A DNA stretch of 64,000 nt from the NCBI RefSeq assembly GCF_028641065.1, contig NC_073388.1, positions 56,668,001 to 56,732,000 of the forward strand. Direction: 5' to 3'. The notes beneath the pieces were generated by a model. The model did not search any database, was not told the DNA's origin, and saw only the letters and a program-made list of their open reading frames with translations. This document shows, one piece after another, positions 1,600-62,303 of this stretch. Position numbers and translations under genes: made by a program. Numbering within the stretch: position 1 is the first letter of the stretch; every line of letters starts with the position of its first letter. This DNA is from Leucoraja erinacea. Its lineage: Eukaryota.

Positions 1600-1670
1600 G
1601 ATTGCTGCGGGCCAGATAAAACTGCGTAGCGGGTCGGATGTGGCCTGCGGGCATAGTTTGGAGACCCATG
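1600..1670. mobile_element. One terminus of a hAT/Charlie-like DNA transposon
   Basis: cggatgtggcctgcgggcatagtttggagacccatg resembles a hAT end (reverse complement of CAGGGGTCTCCAAACT). Partner end not found. Confidence 0.55.
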
Positions 1671-2550
1671 GACTAAACTATAGTCCCCGCACAACTTCTG
1701 CCAGGGTCTTCTCTATTTTACTGGTCCTTAACTATTATTTATGTTATTTCTATTTCTTGATCCTCTTCACTGAAGTTCCTTTTTTACTGTGGAAATTACA
1801 GCCGCTACCAGTAGTGCTACTACTCCTTCCCATTTTCTCAATTATTTCTAAAGGTTTTAATAGTCTGTAAGATTTAGTCCGCTATCACGTTAGGTTTGTA
1901 ACCAGGTTTTGTTAATGACTACAAAATGCAATCTTTGAGGCTGATTTTGTGGTTCTAACACGTTTTATTGCTTGATTAGGATTATTCCAACAAATAGCTT
2001 GCCTACACAGTGGGTAGTTTGATTCCTTCTCTGCTGGAGATTTCACCGTTTCATTGGATTCTATAATGATATTTGACAAATTCTCTATAGGATGTAAACC
2101 TGAAAGTAACTGTTTGTTCTGCACTGTAATTAATTGTTTTGTACGCTTCTACAGGACAACCCTGGGCTCTGAGCACACGACTTATGGACACTCCTACATC
2201 TGAGCGACCTCCCACAATACTAAATGCAAAAGTCTGATGTACATACATACATTCATTCCTATAAGCAACAGAATTAGTTTCCCTCTCTCTCCACTGTTAG
2301 TAATTTTCTTACCAGACTTATGTGCTTCTGACACGATTCATTATAACACAGATCGTGTCCAACATATGAACACGATTGACTTACAGAGGTCTGTAAAATT
2401 GGAACATATTCAAATGTACAGACCTCTGCATGAATGGGGTAGAATATCAAAGTATTACTTGTTTACAGGACAAGTCTGTACCAATCATGATGCCAGACTA
2501 AACTAATCTCATCTGCCTGAACATGGTCCATATCCCTCTATTCCCTGCCA

Positions 2551-2853
2551 GTTTAGTTTAGACATACAGCGCGGAAACAGGCCCTTCGGCCCACCGAGTC
2601 CACACCAACCCGCAATCACCGCATAGTAACACTACACCACACACACTAGGGGCAAGTACATTTATACCAAGCCAATTAACCTACAAACCTGTACGTCTTT
2701 GGAGTGTGGAAGGAAACCGAAAATCTCAGAGAAAATCCACGCAGGTCACGGGGAGAACATACAAACACCATACAGACAGCACGCGTAGTCAGGATCGTTC
2801 TCGGGTCTCTGGCGCTGTTATGCAGTAGCTCTACCATAATGGCACCGTGTCGC
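2551..2853 (-). mobile_element. HE1-type V-SINE, near full length
   Basis: tRNA-like head, V domain (GTTCTCCCCGTGACCTGCGTGG...CCACACTCCAAAGAC on -), CR1-like tail and (TAAAC)n end. Confidence 0.88.
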
Positions 2854-4219
2854 CACTTTGACAATGGAGTAACCAAAAGAGACAGTATAGAGAATGCTGT
2901 ATAAGCAAATGCTCGCCTCTAATTCACAGCCAATTGTTTATTTTCTTAATTCTTAAATGGTGCTATCATATCTGAAATTGCCATCCCCCCCTGGCAGTGC
3001 ATTTCACGCACCTACCACTCCTCCCCATTGAGAGATGAAACAATGCAATATTGGATAAGTGAGTGAAGTACTAATTTAGAAGTCTGGATTAACAATACAA
3101 AGAATTGGATTTTGATTCCACCAGAACAGATGGTCTTCAGTTAATCAAAAATCTGGAATTTTTAAGGAAAACATTTCTTATCTCAGCATAAATCATCACA
3201 GTCTAAGGAGATTGCGCAGGCTTTGGCATAGGCACAGAAGAGCTTTCCTGGAATGGTGTGGGGATGAAGAATTAGGAGATCCTGTTGCACGGATAAGTTT
3301 GAGATGCCATGCTTGTTCATCATGCAGAAATGAAATGATTCAATCCAATGAGAGAAGGCTAACTGGTGTTTTGGTTTGAAATGTTTAAACCATGAATTGG
3401 TTAGGCAGAAACTGAGATTCCAAGAGAGCACAGATTTAAAGTGATTGGCAGAAGAAACGGGTGAAATATCGAATATATATTTTTAATACAATGCGTGCTT
3501 AGGCTTTAGAATGCACAACCTGATAAAGTAGATGAAAATTCAGTTGTTACTCAAAAGACACTTAGAATAAATACTTTGGAGGGAATGGCAATAAAGTATG
3601 GGGGGTAGGAAGAGCAGCCAGTTAAGACTATGGGTCAGATAGCTGCCTCAAGTGCTGTACAGTTGTAGAATTCAATTTACTTATTTAAAAGGAAGAAAAC
3701 ATTTAGGAAATGTTACAAATAGGACAACAAATTCATCAGTGTTTGCAAGGAGAGAATATTAATAAATTGTTCATGGCCCATCTTGCACTAAATTAATGGA
3801 CATAGTATTTTACAAGGACTGTATTACACCATGAAATGCCCTGCTAAAATGTAATTTTGTATAATTTGTCTGCCACTTAGAGAATGCAGGCACTTAGTCC
3901 GATCCTGAGCGACCAACTTTCTATTTTGCTTTGCAGACCGCCAGACAAGAACACTAGAAAATATGTGCTTAAAGTGTGATGAACAGATTTGATAATTTAT
4001 CTGTTTAAAAAATTGTACAACAAAACGTGCACTATGACATAGTTCTTAAAGATTTAAGGCACGTTCCTTTTGAAGAATTCATGTGGACAGGGATCTTGAG
4101 ACTTGGGCAATTGAGGAAAATGTGGAATATGAATTCTTGCTTTACCACTTGTCAGCATGAGTGTCAAAGTTTTATATTAGGAATTACACGTATACCAATC
4201 TCTACAGCCCACCTATTGA

Positions 4220-13849: not shown

Positions 13850-14007
13850 TTCCAGTTGAAGGCCTGAAAAATCAGAAATACTTTGATGAGCTGCGTTTGA
13901 ACTACATACAAGAACTGGACAGAGTAATTTCCTTTCAGGGGAAGGATCCTACACATAATCCACAGCGTTTTTATCAACTAACCAAGCTCCTAGACTCCCT
14001 GCAAATA
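13850..14007 (+). CDS. ar: Androgen receptor exon 7 (LBD)
   Basis: Flanks ttggcag|TTCCA...CAAATA|gtaagt, 158 bp, phase matches exon 6. Translates [53 protein letters not shown] vs human [27 protein letters not shown]...[15 protein letters not shown]. Confidence 0.96.
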
Positions 14008-14864: not shown

Positions 14865-15350
14865 ACACAAAGTGCTGGAGGAGCTCAACGGGTCAGGCAG
14901 AATCTTGGAAGGGAATGGACAAGTGATGTTTCGGGTCGCGACCCTTCTTTAGACTGATTGGAGTAAGTGGTAAAGAGCTGGAAAAGAGAGGTAGGGGTGG
15001 AACAAATCCTGGCAAGTGATAGGTGGATTGGCAGATGGTTAGAGTAAGTGCTAAAGGTGAAAATGAGACAAAAAGGTGACAGATAAGGAGAGGAGTACAA
15101 TGTAAAGCTGGAGGGAGGGATGTATGTGGAAGAGAACAGGGCGAGGAGATAAAAGGAGGATTAAAGAAAAATGGGGGACTCTGGATTGGGAGATGAGAGG
15201 AGAGAATAGAGCAGAGTGACTGCAGAGGGTGGGAGATGTTGGAGTACCGAATGCAGTAGACAAGATTTGAAGAGGTGCACTAAACTGTCTCATGTGGAAG
15301 AGCTGCTGCGGTCCCTAGATGGTAGTGAGAGGGGAGGGGTAGGTACAGGT
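14865..15350 (-). mobile_element. Decayed Penelope-like 3' fragment with degenerate hammerhead motif
   Basis: On -: cagtctaaagaagggtcgcgacccgaaacatcact plus a pyrimidine-rich UTR. Confidence 0.65.
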
Positions 15351-16600: not shown

Positions 16601-16756
16601 ACAGTGAGGAAACTTCACCAGTTTTCATTCGATCTCTTTGTTCAGTCTCAGTCTCTCAGCGTACAGTTCCCTGAAATGATGGCAGAAATAATCTCTGCCC
16701 AGGTACCAAAGATCCTCGCTGGTATGGCCAAACCGCTTCTTTTTCATGAACAATGA
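16601..16756 (+). CDS. ar: Androgen receptor exon 8, coding part (helices 11/12, AF-2, stop)
   Basis: Acceptor ttttacag|ACA. Translates [51 protein letters not shown], colinear with human IARELHQFTFDLL...[32 protein letters not shown] at 16754-16756. Confidence 0.97.
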
Positions 16757-19700
16757 CATTCATTGCTTATATATGTTATACTGCCTGTAACTCTGTACTA
16801 CCTAGAGTTTATCTTGTTTTCAACGTCTTCAGTTCAGTCAAATGCAGAATGATCTGATTTAGAAATGAAAAATCTTTTGCGAAATCTACCTTTATTTCCG
16901 GTGTTCGATTGACCACCTCGTTACAAAGTTGGTCATGTTATACCACCAATGTGGTAGGCAGGTTATAATCTTATTAACCAGTTGTTATGTTGGACCACAC
17001 AAATTACTGGATAATAATCTGGTTATATTTAGAAAAAAAAAGAACAGTTGCATTTACCTCTTCATCGGTCCATCAGAGTAGTTTCATTTTCTGATTTTTA
17101 CTTAAAGCTACCTACATTTGTTTTTGTTATTTTGAAACTACCTAGTGACCTGTTTTTTTTATTTTACATATCAGATATTAGTTTAGCCTGGTGTTAAAAT
17201 AGTGCCTCACATCATGTTACATTTATCAAATTATTTTTGTTAAATGCAAAATTTGATGTAAATTGCATTTTTTTTAAATTGCACTATGAATTTACTTTTC
17301 CTGAATACCAGAAAAAATGTATGTTATAGTAGTTGTGAGATGTTCCAAAATTCATAAATATTTTTTGAATTTCCAAAGAGGTACATAATATGATGGGCTT
17401 TTACATGCAATGATTTACTAGAATTCTTCCTCTCAGTTGAAACGCGTACGTTTGTAAATTAAAAATCATAGAATTTGTGCTTCTGAATCCCAACTATATC
17501 ATGTTTCACTTTTGAGGATTGCATAAGTTGTGGGTGCACTACGCTGCTTCTGTGCAAAATTTAGTATCTGACAGACATGTTCTGTTGATGGATTTGAACT
17601 TCCACCTGGTCAACAACATGCAGTAGTATTCCAAATTTGATATGTACCAAAGCCATTTTATACTTAAACTAGGATCCTGTGGTACCTTTTTTAAGTAACT
17701 ATGTAGTGCAATACCAACTGCATGTTTGGAACTTAAATCTGATTTATAATTCTTGATCATCAAGCCACAGTTGTTTTATTCTATACATACTTAATCAGAA
17801 ATAATATTTAGTGATTGAGCATCTTACCTTTAACTAAGACAGGTAAGTCCCACGAGGCAATACAATCCACACACTACTTAACTATGCAAGCATGCAAAAC
17901 ATTTTTCGTTGGTACGACAGTCTTTCGGGCTGTTGTTTGTATTTTCATTAGCACATCTTTGCCATATTTGTACTTGTCCCTTTTTTTAAATCTGTGCAAA
18001 AACACAAACAACATACTATAAAAACACTTCTGAAAATGTCCTTGTACATTTATCTGTAGCATGCCACATATTTGTGCCAGTTTGGTTTGCTGCAAACCAT
18101 TGAAATTCTTGCTCTTCTACAAAAATGAAGTATGAATATAGGTCACATGGTGAAAGCGGCTTGCATCTAAAGAAGGAAGACTTTATGCCAGTAAAAGCAG
18201 TTCAAAAGTAGAGTTTAAATAGTCCTTTTTTATTCTAGATATGAGCATGTTACTAATCATTTAGAGTTAACAAAACAAAACTGATGTAAATTTCCAAACT
18301 TCATTAATGTAGAGTAAAAGTATAAAGATAATGCATTTCTCCATTGGCAGTATTTTCAAAATTAAATGTCTTGTGTAAAAATGTTACTGTAGGCTTCACA
18401 GTTTTAAAAATAATACTTATTTCCGTCATCTGTGAATAGCACCAATGTACTGCGTACCTTGTTTGGACTCCTTTTGGATTTTTTTTTGTTCAGTGCAGCC
18501 AAAAGACAGGCTAAAGCTAGATGTACAATTCTATAAGCATATTCTTTAACAAAATATTGTATTTTTGAGGGATGGGAAGGATAGAGGAATGCACTTGTTC
18601 ATATTTTTAAGCATATTAAAAGGACTTGCTACTTATTTTAAAATGACTTAGTTTTTGCTTTCTTTGGGTGTGCAGGAAAGAGAATATTCTCTTGCCAGTG
18701 CAGGCTTAATTATTGTTGAGTTTGAGTTGCAATGTATCATAAAAGCCTTGAGGACTTGGTCATTGAATCCATGACTTTCAGTAACCTAGGTGGTTGTAGA
18801 TCTGGGAGCAAATAAAATCCTAAAACTTTTTTGTTTCACTTCTCTCACCAAAAATATAAATGGAATAGTTTTAGTTCTCCCAGAGAAAGAGATGTAAACT
18901 TCGAGACTTATGGGATGGACCAGTGTTTATTTTTTAAGTAAATAAATACTTAATGTTTACTCAATTTATCTTGCCAATTTTTTGGCTTCTAACACCATAA
19001 TCTTTGTAGTTTCAGCCATAATTTACTGCAGTTGATATTGTAAATCAAGAATAAATATAATGAATTCCTGTGTTAAATTCGAAAATATATCTTTTTCATT
19101 AGCCTTTTCTGGCTATGAAAGTGTTATGCAAAATTTCCAAATGTTGATGGTGAGTGCTGATATTTCAAAAATAGGGTTATGCTCAGTTAGGATGAATAAA
19201 TTGTTATGTAAATGTACAAATCTGTGTTACAGTGGTAATATGTTGCTAGTACTGCAAAAATAATGCATAGAATAGATATTTCTTGATTGAAGCACCACTC
19301 TGGCAATTAAAATGTTTCATTTATCTAGTCATTCCTGTGAAGTAGATGACACCCAATGTATAGGAAATAAACAGTTATTTGCCATGATGTTCCCTTAAAA
19401 AGCTATCCTTATTGATATGTCCGTTAATATGCATATGTTTGTGTTCCAATTTTTTTAATTTTTGGAGTTTATTCTTTTTGGAAAATTATTCCCAAGTGCT
19501 TACAAATACCTGTATATATTTCCCCTGCCTTAGCTGCCACAAATTTGGAGATACATTTGTAAGTGCCTTCACATATCTCTTAAAGTTAACAGGGAAAAAA
19601 TAGTCTATTGTGTTAGAATGCTACCAGACACTCATTAAAAATTAGTTTTAAAATATGTTTAACTGGAATAATGGCATTAGGTTTCTTTATCTGGGTGAAT

Positions 19701-20141
19701 TTTGCAGGGTATTTTCAGATTTTTTGTTCCATTTTAAAGTTTTCATTTCATGTTTCATTTTATGTTAATGACACCTACAGATTCATAAATCAAGACTATC
19801 ATTTTATAATTTTAGGTACAATGATATCAGTAAGCAAGTATTTCTGTTTTGGTGGTGACTTTGTAAGAGATGACCATAATGAAAATCAAATATCATTTGT
19901 TTTTTTCATTCCCAGTAACCTGCAGTGAGATTAGTTACCCCACAAGTCACATGAAACACTAATTTACCATTCACATCAATCCACCTTGATATGTGCTACC
20001 AGCAAAGAAATTCCCAGGCAAATTAACTTGGCGATCTCCTGCCAATTAAACACATGTATATTACAAATAATGACACTAAATAATATGTATCACAAGGCAA
20101 TAATACACGTTCAATGTAGAATAATAATACCATATTTTATA

Positions 20142-20238
20142 TGTCTGAAGAAGGGCCTTGACCCGAAACGTCACCTATTCCTTCGCTCCATAGATGCTGC
20201 CTCATCTGCTGAGTTTCTCCAGCATTTATGTCTACCTT
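20142..20238 (+). mobile_element. 97 bp Penelope-derived mini-element with 12 bp TSD
   Basis: TSD CCATATTTTATA at 20130-20141 and 20239-20250. Sequence matches the PLE 3' UTR. Confidence 0.85.
20143..20174 (+). ncRNA. Minimal type I hammerhead ribozyme motif
   Basis: GT-CTGAAGA-A-GGG(ccttga)CCC-GAAA-CG-TC-AC: core boxes intact, palindromic ACGT in place of helix III. Activity untested. Confidence 0.65.
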
Positions 20239-20962
20239 CCATATTTTATAATGTAATTTCCACGTGCATTATTGCCTTGTAACATATTTCCGTGGTAATT
20301 AATTCCCTATATGTTGTGACTAAAATGATTTTTCCTGAAGTGACATCACTATTGAAATAGCCATAATTGGGGAGTGTTAGGGGTACTTGGCAGTTGGGTG
20401 GAAAGGATGATAAGAGATCAGTTTAAAAGCACGTCCTTCGGAAAAATAAAGCTCAAACTTTGAAACTCAAGAATTATAAAATCATCTTTTAAAACCTCTT
20501 TGCAAATACAGCTTCAGATCTAAGTAGTTCCCGTATTTTGTTGTTTTATATTTCCAACATCTGCAGATGTTAGTTTTTGTTTTAAAATAGTATATTCTGT
20601 ATCTCACAACGTATAAAGGCCAAAATCTTTCTACTTGGCCTGTACTTTTACCAGTCATCTCAAATATGTTTCATGGTCCTTGAATAAAAGTTTACCAGAG
20701 AAGTATAATATTACATCCCTTGTTTTTTTCCAGGCAAAAACAGTCACTCTCCCAATATTTTGAGGGTATAAACCACATCTGACCAATACCATGTACTGAA
20801 TGAATGTATGCATCACCCCATTTTTAGTTTAAAGTCTGTCGATATTTAGAGTCTGTTTCTTTAATGGTCTGAGGATAGAAATGTTTTGTAAGAATAAGCA
20901 CCTTATAAGTGACCATTTTTGTCAGCCTTTTTGATTCATTTTTGTATTCTTGAGCATTTGTT

Positions 20963-20968
20963 AATAAA
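20963..20968 (+). terminator. Candidate AR polyadenylation signal
   Basis: AATAAA followed by CA and a T/GT-rich tract (cttctgtatattctattattgt). One of several candidates. Confidence 0.3.
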
Positions 20969-22494
20969 AGGAATATGCACACTTCTGTATATTCTATTAT
21001 TGTAGAGCAGTATATATGCCTTACATAGTTTTTGCAATGCAGTAATGCATTGTGTTGGAAAATGTTGCTGTAACATTGATACAGTGTTTTGTCTTTGTTT
21101 TATTATTTCTGTCTAAAAGTCTGTTTAATGTTAGAATGGTAGAGACCTTCAGGTTGCCTGCATCTGAGCAGGAAAAGATGAAGCAAATTGTAGGATTGCC
21201 ACAATAAGATGCATTTGTTCTGAGTGTTAACGTTATTGCTAAAAGTTCAGGAAAAGTATTAACAAGTTCTTCTGTTGGTATCAAGTCTGATTTTTGACAA
21301 CCTAAGCTGCATATGAGATGCTAAAGCTGTTGAAAGAAACAATGTTAAGAAACACATGCAGTTTTCATCATAGGAATATAAAAGAAAATTATGTTCTTTG
21401 AATTTTCAACAGATACAATTGTTTTTATTAATAACCCATTAAACCTTTTCAGGTTCAATAGAATGGTCACTGGTTGTTGTTATTGTTTAATAGCTGTACT
21501 AGTGTAGGGTTGGGTAGCCTCAGACCAAACAATCAAAGGAGGCACACAAGCTTTTAAATCACAATTAAATGTGGATAGAGCAGGAAAGTTATGATGCAGG
21601 TGTGAAGTTTTTGTTGTCACTGAACTACAGGTTGAACCATCCATTTTAAAGCTGTACAGCCTTTGACATACTTGACAGTACTGCAGGAATTAGTCACGAG
21701 CACACTCCATTAATGAACTAAGGGATCATTGATTGTTTTTTCCTACATAGATGATGCGAGATACCAACAGATGCAGCACCAGCAAGCATTTTTCAACTAT
21801 GTTTATTTTTGTAAGATGCAGTATATCTTATCTTTACCAACAGTGACATAGTTAATTGTATTAAAAAGATACCCTCAGAAAGGATAAATGATATGTGATT
21901 TGTACAAGAAAAAAATACATTATCTGGGAAATGCCCAAGGTACTGGAAAATAGATGTTTGTATATATCTTTAAAAGAGAAGGATTGCAAGGCAATGCATC
22001 AATTCACCAGCTAATGCCAATTACAAAACTGTACAATATGCGAGTCATTGTTTTCATTTGGGATGCTGACTGTTGGCGGAAGAGCCCAAAATCCTGATGT
22101 TTACTTCATGAGAAGGTTGGAAAATTTTTAACTGCATTTTCTGCAATATTCTCATGGAACCTAGCTCATTGGAAATGAACTAAAGGAAATGAACTATGGG
22201 AGATCACAGGTGAGATTCTAATTATTTCACCTCAATGTATAGTGTAAGGATGCTTTGGCTTCCTTTTATTAAAACATGAGCTAAAATGTGGATGGCATAT
22301 AATAACCTGATTTAGGAATGCCAGAGATAGTTGTGCTCTAAGATATATGTGCTGTATATTTGCGTTTACTAACCTTATGAAATTTCAGAACCAAAAATGC
22401 ATAGGACGCTTCATTTCAGAAATCTAATCCACCCCTTGATAGCAATGCGAGTAAAGCCTATCCCTTCATGCATGGTTGGTCTTCTTTTACGATA

Positions 22495-39500: not shown

Positions 39501-41261
39501 TTTGAGGTTTGAAATGAGTAATTTGAAAGAGAGAGAGTTATTGCTGTGACCAACTAGCTCAGTGGTCAAGCAATAATGCATTTAAATGATTGTCTGCTAT
39601 TCTATTGTGGATTGATAGGGATGGATTCAACTATTGCCATGTGAAGATTTTTAATGTTATGTTGAGACAACACATAGCACAGACTCTTCAAAGATGCAAA
39701 TATGATGAAAAACATTGAAAACAGCAACTATATCTTTATCTGGAAAATGAAATTGCAGGTGATTGCAACTGTGCCAAAGTGGCCAAACTGTCTTATTGGG
39801 CTTTCTGACACATCATTCACTTTACTAGACACTAAGCTCTGAGTGGTCTGCGAAGGCGTAAAATGGATTTAATTTATATTACAAGCCCAAATTAAAAAAA
39901 ATAATAATTTTAGTGGGGATAATATGAACATAAAACATATTGTATTTAGGTATTATTGTTGTTGCATCATTACAGTCTAACTCATTGCTTCTTCCTTCAA
40001 TCACTGTACCTAATTCACAATTATGCTATTTTAGTGAATATCATCAGAATTTTGCCCAGTAAAAATTTTAACAATAGCTCATGTCTGAAAAGGTCTTACA
40101 AGGTCTACGGTAGTTCCATTTACATATCCCTCTGAACCACATCTGTCCATATATCTGTACAAATGTCTTTTAAAAGTCATAGCTGTATCCACTTCTATAG
40201 CTTCTTCTGGCAGCTCATTCTAGATATGGACTACCCTCTGATTGAAAACATTACACCTGAGGTCCTTAAATATTCCCCCTCTCACTTTAAGCCTATTCCT
40301 TCCAGTTATATAATCATCCACACTTAGAAAAAGACTGAGTGTTCACTTTATTCATGCTCCTGATGATCTTGCCCACTTCAAAAAGATCATCCCTCAGACA
40401 ATCCTGACTATGGGTGATGTCTGTACGGAGTTTGTACTTTCTCCCCGTGACCTGCGTGGGTTTTCTCCGAGATCTTCGGTTTCCTCCCACACTCCAAAGA
40501 CGTACATGTATGTAGGTTAATTGGCTTGGTAAATGTTTAAAAAAATTGTCCCTAGTGGGTATAGGATAGTGATAATGTGCGGGGAATGTTGGTCGGCATG
40601 GACCCGGTGGTCCAAAAGGGCCTGTTTCCGCGCTGTATCTCTAAACTAAAACTAAAGTGAACTCCTATGCTCCAAAGAAGAAAAATCCAGTCTATCCATC
40701 CTCTCCCTATAGCTCAAACCAATAAGCCCAGGTATCATTCTGCTGATTTTTGTCTGCACTCTTTCCAAGAACATGCTTCGTATAACTGGGTAACCAGAAC
40801 TCCACACAGTATTCCAAGTGTGGCCTCATCAACAAAATGTACAGCTGCATCATGATGTCCCAACTTTTGTATTCCGTACCCTTCCCACTGAAGGTAAGCA
40901 TGTCAAATGCCTTCTTCACCACCTTGTCAACCAAACTCGCCACTTGCAGGGTACCATGTACCTGTACTCCCAGATGTGTCTGGTCTTTGGCATTCTTCAG
41001 GGTTCTACCATGTAAGTCTTGCCTGGTTTGACATACCAAAGCCCATCTTCACACCTGATCTAAATCCTGTTGTAAATGTAGATATCCTTTGTCACTATCC
41101 ACCAATTGTGGTGTAATCTGCAAATTCACTAACAATGTTAACTACATTGCCATCCAAATCCTTAATGTAGATAACAAACAATAGTAAACCCATCACCGAC
41201 CCTTGCAGCATACCTCCAGTCACAGGCCTCCAATCAGGAAAACAACCCTCCACAACTACCC

Positions 41262-41858
41262 GTGCAACTGCAGGAGATGCAACATCTTTACCTCCCCCCT
41301 CAATTTATTTTTAATCATCAAAGGACCCTGACAATCTTTTCAGGTGAGGCAGAGGTTCACTTGCACTCCTCCAACCTCATCTACTGTATCCACTGTTCCA
41401 GGTGTCAACTTTTGTACATCAGTGAGACCAAGCGCAGGCTCGGTGATCATTTCGCTGAACACCTCCGCTCAGTCCGCCTTAACCTACCTGATCTCCCGGT
41501 GGCTCAGCACATCAACTCCTCCTCCCATTCCCAATCTGACCTTTCTGTCCTGGGCCTCCTCCATTGACAGAGTGAGGCCAAGCATAAATTGGAGGAACAG
41601 CACCTCATCTTTCACTTAGGTAGCTTGCACCCCAGTGGTATGAACATTGACTTATCTAACTTTAAATAGCCCTTGCTTTCCCCCCCTCCCCTTCCCAGTT
41701 CTCCTACCAGTCTTACTGTCTCCGACTACATTCTATCTCTGACCCGCCCACTCCCTCAACATTTGTCTGAAGAAGGGTCTCGACCCGAATCGTCAATCAT
41801 TCCTTCTCTCCAGAGATGCTGCCTGTTCCATTGAATTACTCCAGCATTTTGTGTCTAT
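41262..41858 (+). mobile_element. Penelope-like element 3' part (GIY-YIG remnant plus 3' UTR) with 15 bp TSD
   Basis: SSNLIYCIHCSRCQLLYISETKRRLGDHFAEH. TSD CCTCCACAACTACCC at 41247-41261 and 41859-41873. Confidence 0.92.
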
Positions 41859-41880
41859 CCTCCACAACTACCCTTTGACT

Positions 41881-41910
41881 CTGAAGAAGGGTTTCGGCCC
41901 GAAACGTCGC
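41881..41910 (+). ncRNA. Minimal type I hammerhead ribozyme motif
   Basis: CTGAAGA-A-GGGT(TTCG)GCCC-GAAA-CG-TC: helix II capped by a UUCG loop. Helix I is weak. Confidence 0.6.
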
Positions 41911-42007
41911 CTATTTCCTTCGCTCCATAGATGCTGCTGCACCCGCTGAGTTTCTCCAGCAATTTTGTGTACCTTCGATCTTCCAGCATCTGCAGTTCCT
42001 TCTTGAA
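41882..42007 (+). mobile_element. 126 bp Penelope-derived mini-element with 13 bp TSD
   Basis: TSD TACCCTTTGACTC at 41869-41881 and 42008-42020. Confidence 0.87.
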
Positions 42008-43152: not shown

Positions 43153-46100
43153 CTGGAAGCCCGATCTACTGGACAATTCCCCTAGCTCTAACTTGCATTT
43201 CACAACTCTTATATGTCCCTGTTTATTTTCACTTTATCTGATTAATATTTTAACCAGTTGATTTATTCAACAGTTTATAACTACGGCAACCCTAGCTACA
43301 TCTTATCAGGGATATACCTCTCATCCTGCCCATCATTCCCCACCCTCTCTGCAACTCAAAACTAACTTGTTTTCTTTCTTTTCAAGTTATCCAGAAACTA
43401 TTTGCAGCATTTTCTATTTTATTACTGATAACGGTTTGAACAAATTGCCATACTGAAATCTTACTTTAAGACATGATTCTGACAAGAGACTTGGGTTGCC
43501 TAGACATTAAATGTGGGGAAGAGTTCTGCATGGGAAATAGAATGGTAAACAGTAATTTAGAAAGTGCACTGCTGTACATCATTGGAGACCATATAAAGGG
43601 AATACGTGTGCAAATGAAATGATAGAAATGTCCATGTCATTGTTTAAGAGTTGTTTCTATGAGCAGCAAAGCACTGACCCTGTTAATAAATGTTCTCATT
43701 ATCTTCTTGCCACATCATAGGGGCACAAATCAATGAATTTTGGCCCATTGCTGTCAAGTTTCATGTATATGTTCTCAATGTATCATGGCCTGGAAACAGC
43801 AATCATAATTAAAAGCCACAAGGATTGCATATCTCCTTGCGGTACTGCTATGAATGTTCACCATGTTCGAGCATACTGTTGGAAGAATTAGTTTATGGTA
43901 TACTTGAATTAGCAGTATTTTATTGATAGTCAAAAATAGAAAAGCTTTCCATTCCGACAACCAACATCCTGTACCTCAAGCATAAAGAAAGCTTTCTCCA
44001 TGCAGTGCAGCACGTGAAAATAGTATTTTTGTACCCGGGGAGGAAACTGGTGCATTACGAGTGGATGTAATGCCAGAAATAACACAGCTAACAAGGAACA
44101 GGATAATCAAGGACATGAAGAGTTGAAATTCGCCTTGGACCAGTTACTACCACAGTGGCAGTCTATAATGCTCCATGTTTGATGTTCATTTCTAACAATG
44201 CTAAAGACACTAAATCACAGGGCAGAAAGTTTAATACTGATACTATCCATTCCTGCTCTCTCGTCCCAAATGAATACCTACCTCCATATGGACAGAGATT
44301 TCATTAACTGGGAGACAAAACTTAACTGTACTTATGATGAGAAATACCATGATTGGACAGGTTAATGACAGTTAAAGGTCAATAGTTACATGGTTCTCTT
44401 AAAAAAAAGGGAAGGACAATCCATGTGTGGGTTCCCGCCATTACTTCAACAATGTTTAACTAGGCTATTTACCATTTAGAGTTTCAGCTCCAAAAATAAC
44501 ATGTTTGCCGCTATTATCTGAGTCACTGCGCAACACCAGATAAATGCAAGTATGCCCCATTTAATCTGCTCTCTCAACCTTTGCCAAACCTCCTGAATAA
44601 AATTGCCAGGTTAAGGCATCTGGAAGCTAGATTGTATTTTCTTTTCAAATTATTTCTGAGTAGAGATGTGGACTTACAGTTCAAAGAAACTTATAAAATG
44701 ATAATTGAACGATGTTTTAGCTGTGCATATGAGGCTTCCACATCTGGAAGCCATCAGGAAAAGATGGCTGGACTCTTCAAGGGATGACCTTAAGTTTTGT
44801 AGAAGATCGGCATTGAACTTACTGTAATAAATATAATTTTTTGCTGTCATTCAGCTACCATAAACCACTTTAAGAAAGGCACACGAAATATAGTTTAGTT
44901 ATAAATCACCATTAACATTAAAGAAAACCTAAATTGTATTTTCACATGATAATAAAACTTTTATTTGGAGCCATTTGAAGATGAAAACACTCCGGAACTA
45001 ATTACTGAAATGGCACAAAGCCTATCCAAACACAAACTTGCCTTCCAGCAAATGTAATAAATTGCATAGATCTGTTTTAATTAAGATACATATAATTAAT
45101 GTAGTTTATGGAGTCTTTTAGATTTATATAATTAAATTAGTTATTTTTGATTGAGAATATACCAATTTTTCTTTACATCACAATACATTTTCTTGAGCTG
45201 GAAGCCGAAGGTTTGAGAAGATTTATGTTTTAATGTGCCAGATCTGTTCGACTGAAAAGGATCCAATTGCCTCAGAGCTATCTTCCACATACTATCTGAT
45301 CATGTGGACAGCAACTAAAATATTTTACAAAATACAATTGGCAAATGCAATTATCTTCTAGTTTATATCTTGTTCTCTTTCATAATTACTAATATTCATA
45401 TTCCACCAGTCCAAAAATGCATTTGCATCCTGTAAGAATTAATAGCGTCAATTACATTTACTGAACTCCCAGCTGCTTCATTCTCCTGAAATGTGGGGTG
45501 GGAAAGCTACAAAACATTTACTTGTATCAGTATACTTCATAATGTTTCTAGGGATTGAGTTTGAATCATTTTTGGAACATTTACCTTTTGAGAAAAATGT
45601 GGGCCATTAGAAAAGCGAGAATGGTGTTCGTGATTCACAAGATTCAGCTGATTTCAGACTCAACCTCTTTATTCAATTGGATGAAATTCTTTCATTGCTT
45701 GCATACATGTGGTTGCTCACTTTTGGGCATCAGGATTTGAATAAATGTTCCACTGTGTTGAACTCTGTCTTGTATGATGATCTGTCTGCAAGAGTTCTTG
45801 GCCAAGGACCATGCTGAGAAGAATCCAAAAGTCTTCACGAATTATTTAAACAGTCGCAGCCTTATCTGGAAGAAGGGAGATAAGGATTCCGAGTTACCAG
45901 ATGCCTACATACTTGTCAGTTCTCACATGAGTACATGCCCAGATTCACTTGCATTTCATGGAAACTGATCTAGATGAAGTGAGGCAAAGGGCACCTCGAC
46001 TGAAAGCATAGTTGAACAAACCAGAATGTTGATATTGGCAGATTTAAGTATAAATAGCAGCAAAAAGCAACAAATATGTTTGGACACAAAATGCTGGAGT

Positions 46101-46187
46101 AACTCAGCGAGTCAGGCAGCATCTCTGGAGGAATAGAATAGTCTTTTTCTACTGAGATGCTGCCTGACCCACTGAGTTTGTTTCTAT

Positions 46188-47598
46188 GGTACACAAAAAT
46201 GCTGGAGAAACTCAGCGGGTGTAGCAGCATCTATGGAGCGAAAGAGATAGGCAACGTTTCGGTCCAAAATCCTTCTTCAGACTGATAGAGGGTGGAGGGA
46301 GGTGGGGAGAAGAAAGGAAAAAGGAGGAGGAGGAGCCTGAGGGCTGAGGGAGGTAGGAAGGGGAGGAGACAGCAAGGGTTAACAGAATTGTGAGAATTCA
46401 ATGTTCATGCCACCAGGATACAGACTCCCCAAGTGTGAGGTGCTGTTCCTCCGATTTCCAGTATTGCTCACTCTGGCCGTGGAGGAGGCCCAGGACAGAA
46501 AGGTCGGATACGGAATGGGAGTGGGAGTTGAAGTGCTGAGTCACCGGGAGGTCAGGTTGGTTATTGCGGACCGAGCGGAGGTGTTCGGCGAAACGATCGC
46601 CAAGCCTGCGCTTGGTCTCACCGATATAGATCAGCTGACATCTAGAGCAGCGGATGCAATAGATGAGGTTGGAGGAGGTGCAGGTGAACTTCTGTCACAC
46701 CTGGAACGACTGCTTGGGTCCTTGAAAGGAGTTGAGGGGGAAGGTAAAGCGACAGGTTGCAAGGGAAAGTGCCCGGGGAAGGGGTGGAGCGGGAGGGAAG
46801 GGAAGATTTGACAAGGGAGTTATGGAGGGAGCGGTCTTTGCGTAAGGCAGACAGCAGGGGAGATGGGAAGATGTGGCGAGTAGTGGGGTCACGTTGGAGG
46901 TGGCGAAACTGACGGAGGACAATTTGTTGTACGTGCCGGCTAGTGGGATGAAAGATGAGGACCAGGGGGACTCTGCCCTTGTTGCGAGTGGGGGGATGGG
47001 GGGAGAGAGCAGTGTTACGGGTTATGGAGGAGATCCTGGTGCGAGCCTCATCTATGGTGGGGGATGGGAACCCACGTTCCCTGAAGAATGAGGACATTTG
47101 CGATGCCCTGGTGTGGAACACCTCATCCTGGGAGCAGATGCGGCATAGACGGAAGAATTGGGAGTAGGGGATGGAGTCCTTACAGGAAGCGGGGGGAAGG
47201 AAGAGTAGTCAAGATAGCCATGGGAGTCAATGGGTTTATAGTGTATGTCGGTCAGAAATCTATCACCTGCGATGGAGATAGTGAGGTCAAGGAATGGTAG
47301 GGAAATGTCGGAAATGGTCCAGGTGTATTTGAGTGCCGGATGGAAGTTAGTGGTGAAGTGGATGAAGGCAGTCAGTTGTGTGTGGGTGCAGGAGGTGGCA
47401 CAAAAGCAATCGTCGATGTAACGGAGGTAGAGGTCGGGGATGGGACCCTGGTATGTATTGAACAAGGATTGCTCGACATAACCGACAAATAGGCAGGCGT
47501 AGCTGGGGCCCATGCGTGTGCCCATAGCTACGCCTTGTGTTTGGAGGAAATGGGAGGAGTCAAACGAGAAGTTATTGAGGGGAAGGACCAACTCCGCT
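46188..47598 (-). mobile_element. Penelope-like element (RT + GIY-YIG + 3' UTR), 5'-truncated and frameshifted
   Basis: LQTQGVAMGTRMGPSYACLF, YLRYIDD, LPFLDL. Hammerhead-like motif at ~46252-46282 (-). Confidence 0.93.
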
Positions 47599-48299
47599 AG
47601 TGGACATTTGTTTCTATCTTTGGTGTAAAGCAGCATCTGCAGTTCCTTCTCACACAAATATGGTTGGATGCTGAGTGACCATTTGTATCATTGCCGCAGG
47701 TGTGTGCTCATCATGTACATAAACATGATTATATATGGATTGCACATAAATTCTACAAAACAGAAAATACTTAAAAAAAAAATTTGCGCAGTGATACACA
47801 AGTAGAAAACACGTCGGTGGTAACGCAAGAGGTGGTCCCTGGAGTTCTGTTCTCAATGTAGGACGTGGTTTAGGATAGATTAGAAAGGAACTGGTCACTG
47901 AAAAGCTTATTGCTATCCTGAGTTATTTGCTGTGATATTGTTGGCAGTGCGCACACTTCTAGTCGTAGAGTTGTGCTTTGAAATCCCTGTCCTGCGACAC
48001 AAACACAAACATCTGGGCTGTGTTGTTGCATGTGGCGGCTTTCAAGTGAAAGTAACTAGAGTTTGTTGGCTCTCGGGTAGAAATGAAAGATTCTATTTTG
48101 AAAAGAGTGAGGGTGTTGTCCCTGGTCGCTTGGCCATTATGTATCCCCCCTCTCAACACACAGAATATTTGGTCATCATCCCAAGCCCAGCCAGAAGAAA
48201 TCACCTGGCACAGATCATGGGAAATGTGCTCTCTGCAGGTGAAACTGAAACCATGAGGTCTCAAATCTTCCCTCCCCAACATACACATAACAAAGGTCC

Positions 48300-55930: not shown

Positions 55931-58900
55931 CCTTTTTACAAGTTCCTTACATTTGATGCTGACCATTCGTGAAGATAGCACGTTGTCCATTCTCCTCTCA
56001 AGGGCAACTTGTTGCTGGAATCATCCCACTGCCCTTGAGGAGGAATAGTGGATGATCAGCAAAGAAACAGGACTGTTGCTCCCTGTCACACACTAAGTGC
56101 ACTGCTTGCTTGATTCACACAGTTGAGAAGTGTTGCATTAAACTAGCTGCATGACGTTTGCAAGTGCTACCTCAATGTGATGCTGTAACTGTGACAACTG
56201 ATGTGTCTGAGGTGACCAAGATAATTTGTCATCATTAAATTTCAAGGCTGTCGTTACCTTCAAAGCCAGTGATAAAACCTCAGCATGGAATAACCTTGCC
56301 TCATCAAGGATGCAACAAGGTGCTAGGCGATGTGGGTGACATGTTCATTTTTCAATCAAATGAACAAGTATGGCTGTAACCACCAAAGTCAGCACTGCTG
56401 TTAACTTCCAGTCATAGTCACCCACTGAATAAGATTTATTTTTCTACAAGGAGCCAAGGAGACATTTTGTGCATAATGGTCCATTATCACTTCAGCCATC
56501 CCAAATGGCAGCAAGACAAGGCTAATATATTACGTGTTTTCAAAGGTCACGGAGATGTCATCCACATTGTAATGCACAACCAATGATTTCCTCAGTAGAT
56601 AGGAATGATATCCTCTCATAGTTCAACACAAAAAAAAATCAAATCTAGTAATAGAAATCCTTCAGCAAAAATATGAAGAGGTTGTTACAGTATGCTTGTT
56701 GTAGGAAATTCCCATTTCCCATATTTATTCATGGAACACAATGTATTGGCAGAATAGCTTCTATGATCCTGGCACCATTTCAAAATCCAATCCCAGCAGT
56801 AGATCTTGGCTTGAACAAAAGCCAAACGTTCACTAGGCAGGTCATTGAAAAGGCCATCGGATGATCTTATTAGGCCAGAAGGGGCTGAGCAAAGCATGGT
56901 ATCCCAGATGCATGTTGTACTCTTCAAAGGATCACATTGTAAGACCAAGTGATGGGATGACTGCAGGAGATAGTACTGTTGGCCTGCAGCACCCACTGAC
57001 GGTCAATACTTCAATTAGTTTTTTCACGTTTTATGCCAGAACCGTTTTTTACCTGAAGCTCTAATTAACCTCCCTCCTTTCAACTCAATCCTGCCCTCTA
57101 CAAACACCTTGAGTCATTAATAAACAAGGACCGCCTCAGAAGACCTGACAAAATGGAACGTTATTTTCATTTTGCTTCAGTTTCAGTTCAGTTTATTGCC
57201 ACGTGTACTGAGGGTTCAGTGAAAAGCTTTTGTGCTATTCAGTCAGCAGAAAGACAGTACATGATTACAATCGATCCATTTACAGTGTAGAGATACATAC
57301 AATATGATACGATACAACTTTATTTATCCCAGGAGGGAAATTGATCTGCCAACAGTCATAAAACAAAAGAAACATGAAATTCAAGTGACTGGAAAGGATT
57401 GGGAATGTGCAAAGATTGGGAAGCGAGGGGGGAGACAACATCCCAATCTCTGCTCTAAAAAAGGCTCTTGGGAGAGAGTTGGCTGTCAACTCATGTGACT
57501 GAGCATTGGGCCGGCTGCAAAACCAGTGCATGTACGTACTTCTGCCCTGTATCTGACCTGCTCTTTAAATAGCTTAACCAGAGACTAACTGAGAGGACTG
57601 AACTGTCCTGTAATTATGTGCAAAGTAGTTTTACTTTGGTCAGTCCCAGCTCAGCCTCTGTAACTTAGTTTGGGATCAGAAGTCCCCAATGGGCAGATAC
57701 AATGGTCCAAATAACAGACAATGTCATTGTTATGAGTAGCTAAAGAGAGCCAAAATGTTGAGTTATTATCACTATCTTGGTCATCCACCTGTAATTAGGT
57801 CTGCAGTAAGTTATGGATACCACACAATGACTTCAACACAGCTCGCTAGTCAAAAAATGAGTCTTGGGCTGCTCTAGTACTCAATATCATGACTGAAATT
57901 TTACATCCATTCCACCTTTTCACCCTACCCCAAAACTCTTTCATTTCCCATCTCTTACACATGCAAACTAGATGCCAATGGAATTAAAGGCCTTGTGATT
58001 CATGTGAGAGGCAATGCATGTGTCGGAATATGGTCTGCACAAAATTGAGAGTTTGTTATGGTGCACATTCTGGTTTTCTGAGAGCTTTACATCTAATTTT
58101 ACTTCGGAGTCACGTGACGCATGCGTGTCATATCGCTTTCACGCTTGCGAAACGACAGGCGGGGTGGAGCGTTCCCCCGCAGCGGTAAGTTTGAAACCGC
58201 GACCTGCAGGTAAGTGATTTACTCTGCGGTAGTTTTTGTCCCCGCGCTGTTTTACACAGGGGGGGGGGGGGAAGCTGGACAAAATAGTGTCCACAAGTGC
58301 TGCGAGTGAAGCTGGCTGGGGAGGACCGCAAAGTTGCGGGAGCCAGCAGCAGCTGAAGGCACAAGGTAAGGGATCAGCTGTGCCGACTTTTGGCCCCGCG
58401 CCGGCCAGAACACCACGGCCGGGCGGGAGACTATTCAGAATGGGGCCATCGACTTTTGACAAGTCGATAACGGCAGGAGGCGGGGTGGAACGACGTTCCC
58501 CCGTAGCGACAATTTAAACCAGGACCTGCAGGTAAGAACTGCGGTCTTTTTGTGTTTTCCCATGCTGATTACAGGTGGAGAAGACAAGGTCTGCGACAAA
58601 GCTGGTGAGGGAGGACCGTGGAGCAGCGGGCAGCCAGCAGCAGCCAGCGGCACTTGGATCACCGATAGTGGAATCAGCTGTGCCCGACGTCGCCTCCGCA
58701 CTGGCCAGATCCACGCAGGCGGGTGGAAAGGCTAGACACAAAACAAACAAGGTCGTGGACTCGGAGGAGTCCGACTTTGAACAACCGCGGGCTGCCAGCG
58801 ACCGAGAGCGCTGGAGCCGGATGGAGCGGTGTATGGAGCATTTGCTCCAACGTGACAGACTCCGGGAGATGGAGTCGGGTCACTGTGGGCCCTATGATAA

Positions 58901-59341
58901 ACCCACAGCAGTACCTCTTGAAGGGCTGCACAGTGCTTCTACCTCATCAGAGGGGAGCACTGCGGGTCAGTTCTGGGCTGACCTGGAAGAGGGGTCCGCA
59001 GAAGGAAAGACAAGAATGCAAGGGGTGCAGGAACAAGAGAACCTACTGGACTAGTAAAACGGACCTCCAATGCCAACCAAACCGAAAATCCAGACACCAG
59101 CGCAACAACAGCAGCGAAGAACCTACAAAAAGAAGTAAACCTGCCACTGGTAACTATGGAGGTAGGTGGGTCTGGTTCCCTACAAAATACGGGGAGCATG
59201 GAGGTTGGGTGGAGATTATCCTCTTTTCTGAATGCATGGAGCATGTTAACAACCGATACTTACATCTTAAGCAGTATCCAGGGATATACAATAGAGTTTA
59301 AACACAAGTACAGCCCTCCAGTTTAACATATACCGAACCGA

Positions 59342-60127
59342 ATGTTCGTGCTTTCTGAAAAAGAAAAATCAAAAGCGCAAGCTGAACTGGAGCGGCTTTA
59401 CGCAAAAGGTGTAATTGAGAAAACTCAACACGAACCATTAGAATTTGTGTCCAATATATTTACCAAAAACAAAAAAGATGGTGGTTGTCGCATCATCATT
59501 ATATTCACTTCAAAATGGAAACCTTTGTTACTGCTAAACAATTGATTTCCAAAGGTTACTTCATGGCTAGCATCGATTAAACAATGCTTACTATTCAGTG
59601 CCTATATGAGGTGACCACAGATGTTACTTAAAATTCAACTGGATGGGACAGCATTGGCAGTATAAAGCACTGCCAAATGGGTTATCATCGGCCCCCGGCT
59701 GTTCACAAAAATTTTGAAATCAGCCCTAGCGTTTCTACGGAAACGTAAACACATGGTCATGGCATATTTCGATGACATACTCATTGTGGGCAAAACTTTG
59801 GAATTGGCCAAACAAACTGTAACAGCCACAAAACAGTTATTTGAAAAACTGGGATTTATTATCCATCCAGTTAAATCTAAACTAACGCCTTCCACTACTA
59901 TGGACTATTTGGGTTTCACCATTGACTCAGTTCACATGTCGGTGACTCTGCCCAAGGGAAAGGCTAGAGATTTAATAGAGGCTTGCAATAACCTCATTGA
60001 CATCAGCAAACCATCCATCAGATTGGTAGCAAAAGTAATTGGCAAAATGGTGGCTGCCTTTACAGCCACACAATTTGGACCTCTACATTACCAAAACTTA
60101 CAGAGAGCCAAAATACAAGCACTCTAA
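59342..60127 (+). pseudogene. DIRS reverse transcriptase (frameshifts and stops)
   Basis: FVSNIFTKNKKDGGCRII, LPNG..PRLFTK, AYFDDILI, LGFIIHPVKS, YLGFTIDS. Confidence 0.92.
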
Positions 60128-60154
60128 ATTAATGCAGGTCACTTTGACAGACCT

Positions 60155-60912
60155 ATGAAACTACCAATCAAAGCTAAAATTGAACTAAAATGGTGGATAG
60201 ATAACATCTGGCTTTGTTCCAATCCAATCATTGTCAGAAACCCTTCCATGGTACTACAAACTGATGCCAGTGCACTTGGTTGGGGTGCCACCAATACCAT
60301 CACCAGCTGTGGAGGTAGATGGACTGCTCAGGAGGCATCATTATTACTCACACTGGGCATAAACTACCTGGAAAGGTTGGGTGCATTCCATGGCCTAAAG
60401 TCATATTGTTCTGGGTTATATCACCAGCATGTTAGACTACAGATAGACAATACCACCGTGGTAGCATACATTAACCACATGGGTGGAAACAAATCAACAT
60501 CATGTGACAATCTGGCTAATACAATTTGGCAATGGTGTATCCAGAGAGATATTTGGATATCAGCCACTTACCTACCAGGAAGACTAAATTTAGTGGCAGA
60601 CACCAGGTCACGCAAATTTAATGAAAACACCGAATGGATGTTGAATAAAAAAGTATTTGCTGATATTACAGCAACATATGGAACACCAGATATCGATCTA
60701 TTCGCATCCAGACTTAACCACCAGTTATCAAATTATGTTTCATGGGAACCAGACCCTGGGGCCGTGGCGACAGATGCATTTTCGCTGCATTGGGGGAAAT
60801 TGTTTATTTACGCATTCCCTCCTTTCTGCCTCATCAGTCGGGTATTAAGGAAAATACAACAAGACTCTGGGTCTGGTATTTTGGTAGTACCCGATTGGCC
60901 TACTCAACAATG
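60155..60912 (+). pseudogene. DIRS RNase H plus N6-adenine methyltransferase-like domain
   Basis: LQTDASALGWGA, INYLE, DNTTVVAYINHMGG, NLVAD; then PDIDLFAS...DAF...YAFPPF...VPDWPTQ. Confidence 0.9.
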
Positions 60913-60914
60913 GA

Positions 60915-61790
60915 AGACAGTCAACCAAAAAACAGTATCTGGTCTATATCAGGAAGTGGGAGATGTACTGCCATAAAAACAACATCACCTACAAAGACAC
61001 GAACATCCCGTCTGTTCTGGAATATCTGGCAGGCCTCCACTATGACGAGGGGCTCAGTTATAGTGCCATCAACTGTGCCAGAAGTGGCCTATCGACTTAC
61101 CTATGGCAGGGGACAGAGCGTTACACTGTTGGGACTCACCCACTGGTAACAAAACTTATGAGGGGAATTTTTAATACTAATCCCCCAAGAACCAGGTATT
61201 CCCAAATATAGGATGTAAGTATTGTCCTGAAGATGCTCAGGAATTGGTCTCCAGCAACAGCTCTGCCCCTACACAGACTGACATTAAAAACAGTCATGCT
61301 AATGGCATTGGTCACGGCACAGACGGTACAGTCACTGCATAAACTAAGACTGGACAACATGACTTCCTCAACAGAAAATATTACGTTTCATATCTATGAG
61401 TTAGTAAAGCAGAACAGACAGGGATCAGCAGGCCTCAATATATAATTTAGGTCATACCCAACAGATGACCGTCTGTGTATAGTAAGACATCTGTCGTTAT
61501 ACATGGAGAAAACGAAAATCCTAAGAGGCAATGAGAAGGCACTTTTTGGTCAGCCACAAGCAACCACACAAAAGAGTGACAGTCCAGATCATCTCAAGAT
61601 GGCTGAAACAGGTGCTAACACAGGCTGGGGTGGATACTAATATTTTTAAATCTCATTCCACCAGGGCTGCAGCTACATCGGCAGCGATACAGTTGGATGT
61701 ACCAATGGACCAAATCCTCAAGGCAGCAGAATGGTCTGGGGGGAAAAAACATTCCAATTATTTTACAACAAACCTGTAATGAAACCTGGA
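60915..61790 (+). pseudogene. DIRS tyrosine recombinase (disrupted)
   Basis: RQSTKKQY..YIRKW, LSYSAINCARSGLS, HPLVTKLMRGIFN, LTLKTVMLMAL, ISRWLK, HSTRAAATS. Several stops and frameshifts. Confidence 0.92.
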
Positions 61791-62003: not shown

Positions 62004-62303
62004 TCACGTGACTCCGAAGTGAAATAGTAAGATTAAACGAGAACTTACCAGTTTGAAGTTTGATCTGTATTTTATGAGGAGTTACGATGAGGGATTATGT
62101 GCCCTCCGCTCCCACCCTGATCATATCTCTTCTCTAATCTTACCATGTTTAGTCATTACAGTTATCTGTGATTTCACACCGTTGCTTTGAAGAATGACAC
62201 GCATGCGTCGTGGCGGGCTTCTTCACGTAATCCCTCATCGTAACTACTCATAAAATACAGATCAAACTTCAAACTGGTAAGTTCTCGTTTAATCTTACTA
62301 TTT
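62004..62303. repeat. DIRS ICR / right-end inverted repeat
   Basis: 62022-62101 is the reverse complement of 62224-62303 (78/80). 62004-62024 is the reverse complement of 58097-58117 (20/21). Confidence 0.95.

Follow-up and report, generated by a model that had tools for sequence, protein, structure and literature searches.

A Penelope-like minimal hammerhead motif in the 3' UTR of the skate androgen receptor gene, probably an inert passenger

Described hammerhead systems and the skate element

Penelope-like elements (PLEs) carry minimal hammerhead ribozymes (min-HHRs) characterised by an extra nucleotide that lies after position 9 and before 10.1, a G10.1-C11.1 pair and a palindromic 15.2-16.2 stretch, for which monomers without detectable cleavage and dimers with low cleavage have been described (PMC4209133). 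The EN+ PLEs, including Poseidon of the anole, combine a reverse transcriptase (RT) with a C-terminal GIY-YIG-like domain by way of a C-X4-C-X2-C linker, and are further marked by an optional tail of 30-40 nt, inverted 5' copies, solo end repeats, target site duplications (TSDs) of ~8-16 nt and a template RNA that is apparently uncut (PMC8557442, PMC3846280, PMC11167929); these traits recur in the skate family described below, the GIY-YIG-like domain as a weak match. In the anole element, cleavage by the motif needed the element's protein and was dispensable for insertion, and no RNA-seq reads ended at the cleavage site (PMC11167929). Whether PLE min-HHRs cleave host mRNAs in vivo is left open in PMC4209133 and PMC8557442. 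The androgen receptor (AR) gene of Leucoraja erinacea provides a test case for this question, as it contains one fixed copy that is transcribed and bounded by unique flanks.

The locus lies in a stretch of 64,000 nucleotides (the window; NC_073388.1, positions 56,668,001 to 56,732,000, forward strand). As held in the original prediction, a 97-bp element is inserted in sense orientation (20142-20238, + strand) between exact 12-bp direct repeats (CCATATTTTATA; 20130-20141 on the left, 20239-20250 on the right, + strand), and contains an intact minimal type I core. A 12-bp repeat occurred by chance in 2 of 196,969 random flank pairs from the AR UTR. The 3' junction is ambiguous by ~4 nt, since the first four nucleotides of the right repeat also fit the continuation of the family. 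On the basis of family matches the element corresponds to a solo, tail-less PLE end piece (pLTR hammerhead region). Its minimal type I hammerhead motif (20143-20174, + strand; predicted cut 20172|20173) comprises CUGAAGA (20145-51), an extra A20152, helix II as GGG(CCUUGA)CCC, GAAA (20165-68), CG and UC. The CUGANGA core, the GAAA stretch and a NUH cleavage triplet are accompanied by the extra nucleotide between 9 and 10.1, the G10.1-C11.1 pair (G20153-C20164) and a palindromic 15.2-16.2 (ACGU), and the assignment to the minimal type I class with an ACGU palindrome stands on all of these features. The element is predicted to form a stable hairpin (20189-20230, + strand; pair probability 0.98-1.00), located just upstream of the first cluster of family 3' ends. 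The Rfam hammerhead models gave 0 matches at gathering score across the whole window, and none at E<=10 between 20000 and 20400; a weak Rfam match to a plastid intron (E 0.88) was discarded as chance. The element is real and transcribed and, judged from its sequence, is a PLE min-HHR in a solo end repeat, of an ordinary kind that is already known.

The helices of the AR copy are short. Helix I consists of 2 bp, a length common to this copy and the D. virilis variant, while helix II consists of 3 bp, as C20156 cannot pair with A20161, against 4 bp in the skate family, 6 in D. virilis and 7-8 in Schistosoma (PMC4209133). The domesticated hammerheads of the Clec2 3' UTR, RECK and other amniote introns are likewise sense motifs in vertebrate transcripts, located outside the coding part, but they are conserved across distant lineages whereas the skate motif is seen in organisms 1-2% apart and, unlike them, belongs as a single copy to a repeat of high copy number (PMC6155905). 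Furthermore, Clec2 is a discontinuous type III hammerhead with a very long helix I, in contrast to the 2-bp helix I and damaged helix II of the skate copy (PMC6155905); a complete monomeric fold with a long helix I, as in the domesticated kind, was not found in the AR copy. The non-LTR retrozymes similarly employ a type I motif from PLE end repeats, but the active ones are tandems of at least two complete motifs, while the AR element is a single copy with no second tandem unit at the site (bioRxiv 10.64898/2026.07.22.740005). The same source describes a tendency of rare exonic copies towards 3' UTRs in Xenopus. In a literature search whose scope took in few subscription journals, neither the skate element nor a hammerhead in an elasmobranch AR UTR was found; chondrichthyan motifs may appear in the supplements of PMC4209133 and bioRxiv 10.64898/2026.07.22.740005.

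The repeat family and the ends of its copies

The abundance of the family was estimated from 120 stretches of 10 kb (L031-L150; 1.2 Mb) taken at round coordinates on 33 contigs, a sample that is spread rather than strictly random. A family profile built from 27 copies produced 546 matches, of which 472 were kept (at least 30 bits) and 74 dropped. These amount to 393 copies/Mb, present in 110/120 stretches, or an estimated ~860,000 copies per genome. An intact core was found in 45/468 scorable copies (an estimated ~82,000 per genome). The skate density is far above the motif counts of ~4,000 in coelacanth and ~9,000 in Xenopus, which were obtained with a different counting method (PMC4209133). 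Eleven further family matches occur in the window at E<1e-3, those nearest to the element being at 14954-14865 (-) and 22540-22500 (-). The former belongs to an older antisense family fragment in AR intron 7 (14865-15279, - strand), and longer, 5'-truncated and broken family copies with tandem or inverted end units are located at 41175-41980 (+) and 46084-47687 (-).

The Penelope-like origin that had been proposed for the element is borne out by the position of the family unit in one genomic copy (L214), where its start lies ~118 nt downstream of the stop codon that ends a 907-aa open frame, 3' of RT and GIY-YIG-like sequence. This frame matches RVT_1 (30.6 bits; cut-off 29.6) and, weakly, GIY-YIG (PF01541; 17 bits, under the cut-off of 22.6; residues 811-845), and several of its homologues carry both RVT_1 and GIY-YIG (PF01541). 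RT, a cysteine linker and GIY-YIG-like text were observed together in open frames at L214:2206-4926 (907 aa), L215:2279-4792 (838 aa) and L216:2932-5388 (819 aa); read from these frames, long open copies of the parent element persist in the genome. A C-X4-C-X2-C linker lies between RT and EN in all three, and a CX2-5CxxC linker in this position is a feature of Neptune/Nematis (PMC8557442). The RT plus GIY-YIG-like architecture is that of Neptune/Nematis, and on this architecture the parent is provisionally classed as a Neptune-type Penelope-like retrotransposon. The subfamily of the AR copy is sister to that of the L214 copy, and the closest relatives of the AR copy are 93-97% identical. An optional 30-40-nt tail, inverted 5' copies and TSDs are all found in the family. 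A separate SINE or retrozyme family was considered and rejected, with 72/243 5'-complete copies continuing into the element body. Family RNA is abundant (1,605-3,678 reads/run), with 93-99% of reads running on into other sequence.

The 3' ends of the family copies are bimodal, with 149/472 at unit positions 93-106, 31 at 107-122 and 198 at 123-133, and the AR copy is of the tail-less kind. Two internal start sites of the RT and an optional tail, as described for the anole Poseidon PLE, match this distribution (PMC11167929). At the other end, 254/472 copies have their start at positions 1-4, a figure partly due to where the profile itself begins. The 243 5'-complete copies with enough flank could be distinguished into those that run into the element body (72), an inverted copy (84) or a tandem unit (4), and solo copies (83, including ~5 misclassified body copies). 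TSDs of 8-16 nt were found in 14/83 solos, against 0-4 in each of 20 shuffles. An excess of 5' ends at the cut site was not found among the 472 copies (14 at positions 28-36 versus 34 and 18 in the neighbouring 9-nt bins). As few copies start around the cut site, the copied RNAs appear to have been mostly uncut, in agreement with the account of the anole element (PMC11167929).

Most short and inverted copies in the 1.2-Mb sample end within a few bases of the hammerhead 5' strand, a pile-up that is absent from the descriptions of EN+ PLEs consulted (PMC8557442, PMC3846280, PMC11167929). This pattern of ends, with 5' ends at the hammerhead edge and no enrichment at the cut, is relevant to the way in which Penelope elements are copied. 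The common 5' edge directly follows a polypyrimidine tract and CAG/TCAGT, which fits the reading of a splice acceptor as well as that of an initiator. We take TCAGT at this edge to be an initiator-like motif, and the pile-up possibly reflects either transcription start there or stalling at the C-rich tract just upstream. Long copies have no consistent unit at their 5' start, and because of this a transcription start at the hammerhead edge is unsupported. A spliced origin of the common 5' end was rejected; no shared donor was found, and the 12/83 solo upstream flanks that match the body do so at differing places, ~5 of them being misclassified.

The AR insertion could have arisen by the copying route that these ends suggest. 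The element's RT-endonuclease would have nicked AT-rich DNA, and priming would have occurred at unit position ~100, the inner one of the two start sites, leaving no tail. An uncut RNA would then have been copied back through the hammerhead, with the RT stopping at the 5' edge that is the family's usual end point, and second-strand repair would have left the 12-bp duplication.

The AR 3' UTR and its transcripts

The AR gene controls clasper development in skates (PMC4403318). Within the window, AR exon 7, encoding part of the ligand-binding domain, lies at approximately 13852-14007 (+ strand; androgen receptor chains are the best matches, E 2.4e-25), and the coding part of the last exon (exon 8), with the stop codon, at 16601-16756 (+ strand). 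The top matches of both the exon 7 and exon 8 peptides are androgen receptor chains, and a Leucoraja erinacea protein named AR, which aligns by exon with C12:56475166-56684753 (+ strand), shows 100% identity to the exon 8 peptide. On these grounds the host gene is AR. The stop codon occupies 16754-56, and the element is located ~3.4 kb downstream of it. The main form of the 3' UTR extends from 16757 to 20982 (+ strand), and the AATAAA at 20963-20968 (+ strand) is the likely main poly(A) signal, as indicated by contig ends and single-cell depth. The presence of this hexamer had been correctly noted; from the stop to 22400 there are 8 such hexamers, this being the last, and 5/8 are upstream of the element.

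Contigs from three organisms (X1, organism A; X9, B; X10, C) match the locus exactly from the exon start at 16601 and contain 1.5-3.6 kb of other sequence before it, which is the pattern of spliced RNA; their treatment as RNA is by guess only, and X9 is flagged as probably DNA. By comparison, the contig of a DNA-like run (X18, organism E) is continuous from 16500 across the exon start. The upstream contigs enter the element and end at 20186 (A), 20169 (B) and 20169 (C), while the downstream contigs resume within it at 20210, 20213 and 20193, respectively, with ends at 20982 in A and 21020 in B and, in C, a continuation past 22400. There is a longer AR 3' UTR form beyond 22400 in organism C. 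The organism A contig is unbroken from 18895 to 20186, across the predicted cut, but reaches only 14 nt past it, below the 31-nt bridging rule, and formally the element is bridged by 0 contigs. In a single-cell run, taken by assumption as a 3'-tag library, the highest non-repeat + strand depth (18.8) falls at 20788-20991, followed by 6.1, with smaller + strand peaks upstream and at 21808-22011. AR mRNA therefore does not simply end before 20142, as both the contigs and the single-cell depth reach beyond the element. The placement of the element inside the transcribed AR 3' UTR is thus upheld by contigs that run into and out of it in three organisms, and polyadenylation solely upstream of 20142 is not borne out. 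The bulk raw reads are uninformative on cleavage, as AR depth is 0-3x (X23, X24) or none outside the repeat (X20), and the reads on the element derive almost entirely from other family copies.

Both junctions of the element are present in the contigs of four organisms, and the insertion thus predates their split. The upstream contigs of these organisms diverge by 1-2% from the window, with 38 differing letters over 3.7 kb in organism E, and 75 and 79 over 3.6 kb in B and C. The AR 3' UTR (16757-22400) is 97-99% alike across the four organisms and, in a repeat-rich genome, is free of detected repeats but for the element. The original prediction had called this the sole recognisable insertion after the stop, and comparison with the 1.2-Mb genome sample likewise yielded no other repeat in 16757-22400.

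Predicted folding and the question of cleavage

The element, which is present in the AR 3' UTR of four related organisms and transcribed with it, is likely an inert passenger, rarely or never cut. Its inertness would follow from a helix I of 2 bp, a helix II missing one pair, a helix III that needs a partner, and a competing fold that hides both halves of the core. The hammerhead fold of the AR copy is predicted at -2.6 kcal/mol against -8.5 kcal/mol for the best fold, which pairs both core halves, and across three window sizes the pair probability at helix I is 0.000 and that at helix II 0.003-0.005. In a long family copy the hammerhead fold is likewise disfavoured (-4.5 versus -9.4 kcal/mol); these predictions ignore help by proteins. 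The 2-bp helix I appears native to the family, being found in 12/13 intact copies that are still joined to the element body, and only 3/45 intact copies have a helix I of at least 3 bp. The fourth pair of helix II is U-A or U-G in 124/132 good copies, while C-A, the state of the AR copy, occurs in 2. The caution attached to the prediction, that the monomer may have no activity, accords with the outcompeted active fold and with min-HHR monomers described as showing no detectable cleavage (PMC4209133).

Meaningful cleavage of AR mRNA, as had been proposed, is disfavoured by the helix II lesion and the outcompeted fold, and also by the genomic distribution of the family, though cleavage at a low level is still allowed. 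At the genome-wide density, a UTR of ~4,229 nt would contain a sense copy with P 0.57 and a sense copy with an intact core with P 0.08; this density overstates the chance of insertion here, since the AR UTR is otherwise free of repeats. Sense copies are thus to be expected, and no depletion of them was found in 483 kb comprising AR and three related receptor genes (L151-L198, named only by their match to AR), where 59 sense and 57 antisense copies were counted. The numbers are similarly even for copies without inverted pairs (44 sense/42 antisense), copies with the core motif (12/17; p 0.46) and fully intact copies (4/5). The AR introns contain 16 sense copies, including an intact one with a better helix II. 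This test of orientation in introns is small, and cuts within introns may be tolerated. The density of the family in the four receptor genes (116/483 kb, or 240/Mb; AR 154/Mb) was observed to be lower, on both strands, than the 393/Mb of the genome sample.

The fully intact core, a state of only ~1/10 of the sampled copies, is counter-evidence to inertness. The AR copy departs from the majority of reads at 5 sites, and 5 substitutions in 96 nt would all miss the 16-nt core with P 0.39. Also against inertness, non-CpG variation across copies is somewhat lower in the core (4.3%, 139/3237) than outside it (6.3%, 562/8974), a difference that alignment trimming together with constraint on the source elements could explain. 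The intact core and palindromic ACGU also favour a reading in which long AR mRNAs are cut at 20172 in a small proportion of cases, either by refolding of the motif by the element's protein or by a sense copy that supplies helix III in trans. Such cuts would deprive the mRNA of its poly(A) tail and reduce AR in places of element expression. Protein-assisted cleavage is conceivable because long open frames (819-907 aa) and abundant family RNA exist, and it has been demonstrated for the anole element (PMC11167929). However, it would have to overcome the helix II lesion and the competing fold, the four steroid-receptor genes display no orientation bias, and the family copies have no 5'-end peak at the cut site. 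The route in trans, which had been put forward as dimer formation with related PLE RNAs, finds little support, resting as it does on an ACGU/ACGU duplex of 4 bp and -3.1 kcal/mol. Contig depth falls across the element in organisms B (29.1 upstream versus 14.6 downstream) and C (62.7 versus 36.1), but not in A (7.64 versus 7.2), and is level in the DNA-like run (30.8 versus 31.2). The drop in B and C cannot be placed, since each value is the mean of a whole contig, over 7 kb that include five poly(A) hexamers upstream, and the depth ratios were not used as a cleavage test. Rare cleavage is considered quite improbable on this balance. If cleavage were demonstrated, the expression of a transposon would be tied to the turnover of host mRNA.

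A different kind of action in trans would treat the insertion as a repeat tag, with which antisense family copies in other transcripts pair over most of its length. Such pairing would bring the long AR form within reach of dsRNA or small-RNA pathways, among them editing, piRNA slicing and decay of the Staufen type. The analogy for such dsRNA pathways is provided by Alu repeats located in 3' UTRs. The predicted duplex with an antisense copy (-142.5 kcal/mol) is far stronger than same-sense pairing (-23 kcal/mol), and family reads occur on both strands, with depths of 458 (-) and 122 (+) in the 20176-20379 bin of the single-cell run. On these two grounds any action in trans would more likely proceed through dsRNA than through a ribozyme dimer. 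However, this would not be specific to AR, as any transcript with a family copy is equally exposed, and as an account of the AR insertion it appears quite unlikely.

The surroundings of the insertion are also predicted to be structured. A fold scan places a host stem around it, with a 5' arm at 20082-20111 and a 3' arm at 20258-20288 (both + strand), which may be proposed as the functional unit, the insertion having enlarged its loop and thereby tuning a pre-existing UTR structure. The stem is the strongest local 36-nt duplex in the UTR scan (-30.1 kcal/mol, followed by -25.3; 878 windows), the interval 20080-20295 has a z of -5.4, with the element included, and the 5' arm has a single match in the genome. 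However, the stem was found after the fact, flanks of greater complementarity occur in 5/48 other solo copies, and the flanks of solo copies in general do not exceed shuffled pairs in this respect (p 0.71); a functional role for it would be extremely improbable. Targeting of hairpin loops by the element found no support in the same comparison. In combination with protein assistance, a hammerhead in the loop of this strongest AR UTR stem would allow Penelope expression to cut long AR mRNA and couple transposon activity to androgen signalling, which is regarded as very doubtful. If true, any skate transcript that contains an intact sense copy would be subject to this switch as well. The preferred reading remains that of an inert passenger, and the insertion is accordingly of little importance for AR biology, being one tolerated copy of a huge repeat family.

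Other repeats were observed elsewhere in the window. The region 58100-61200 (+) contains RT fragments, a weak Dam-methylase match and recombinase-like text, and presumably resembles a DIRS-type retrotransposon, while 62022-62303 comprises a 280-bp self-inverted repeat with arms that are ~75% identical.
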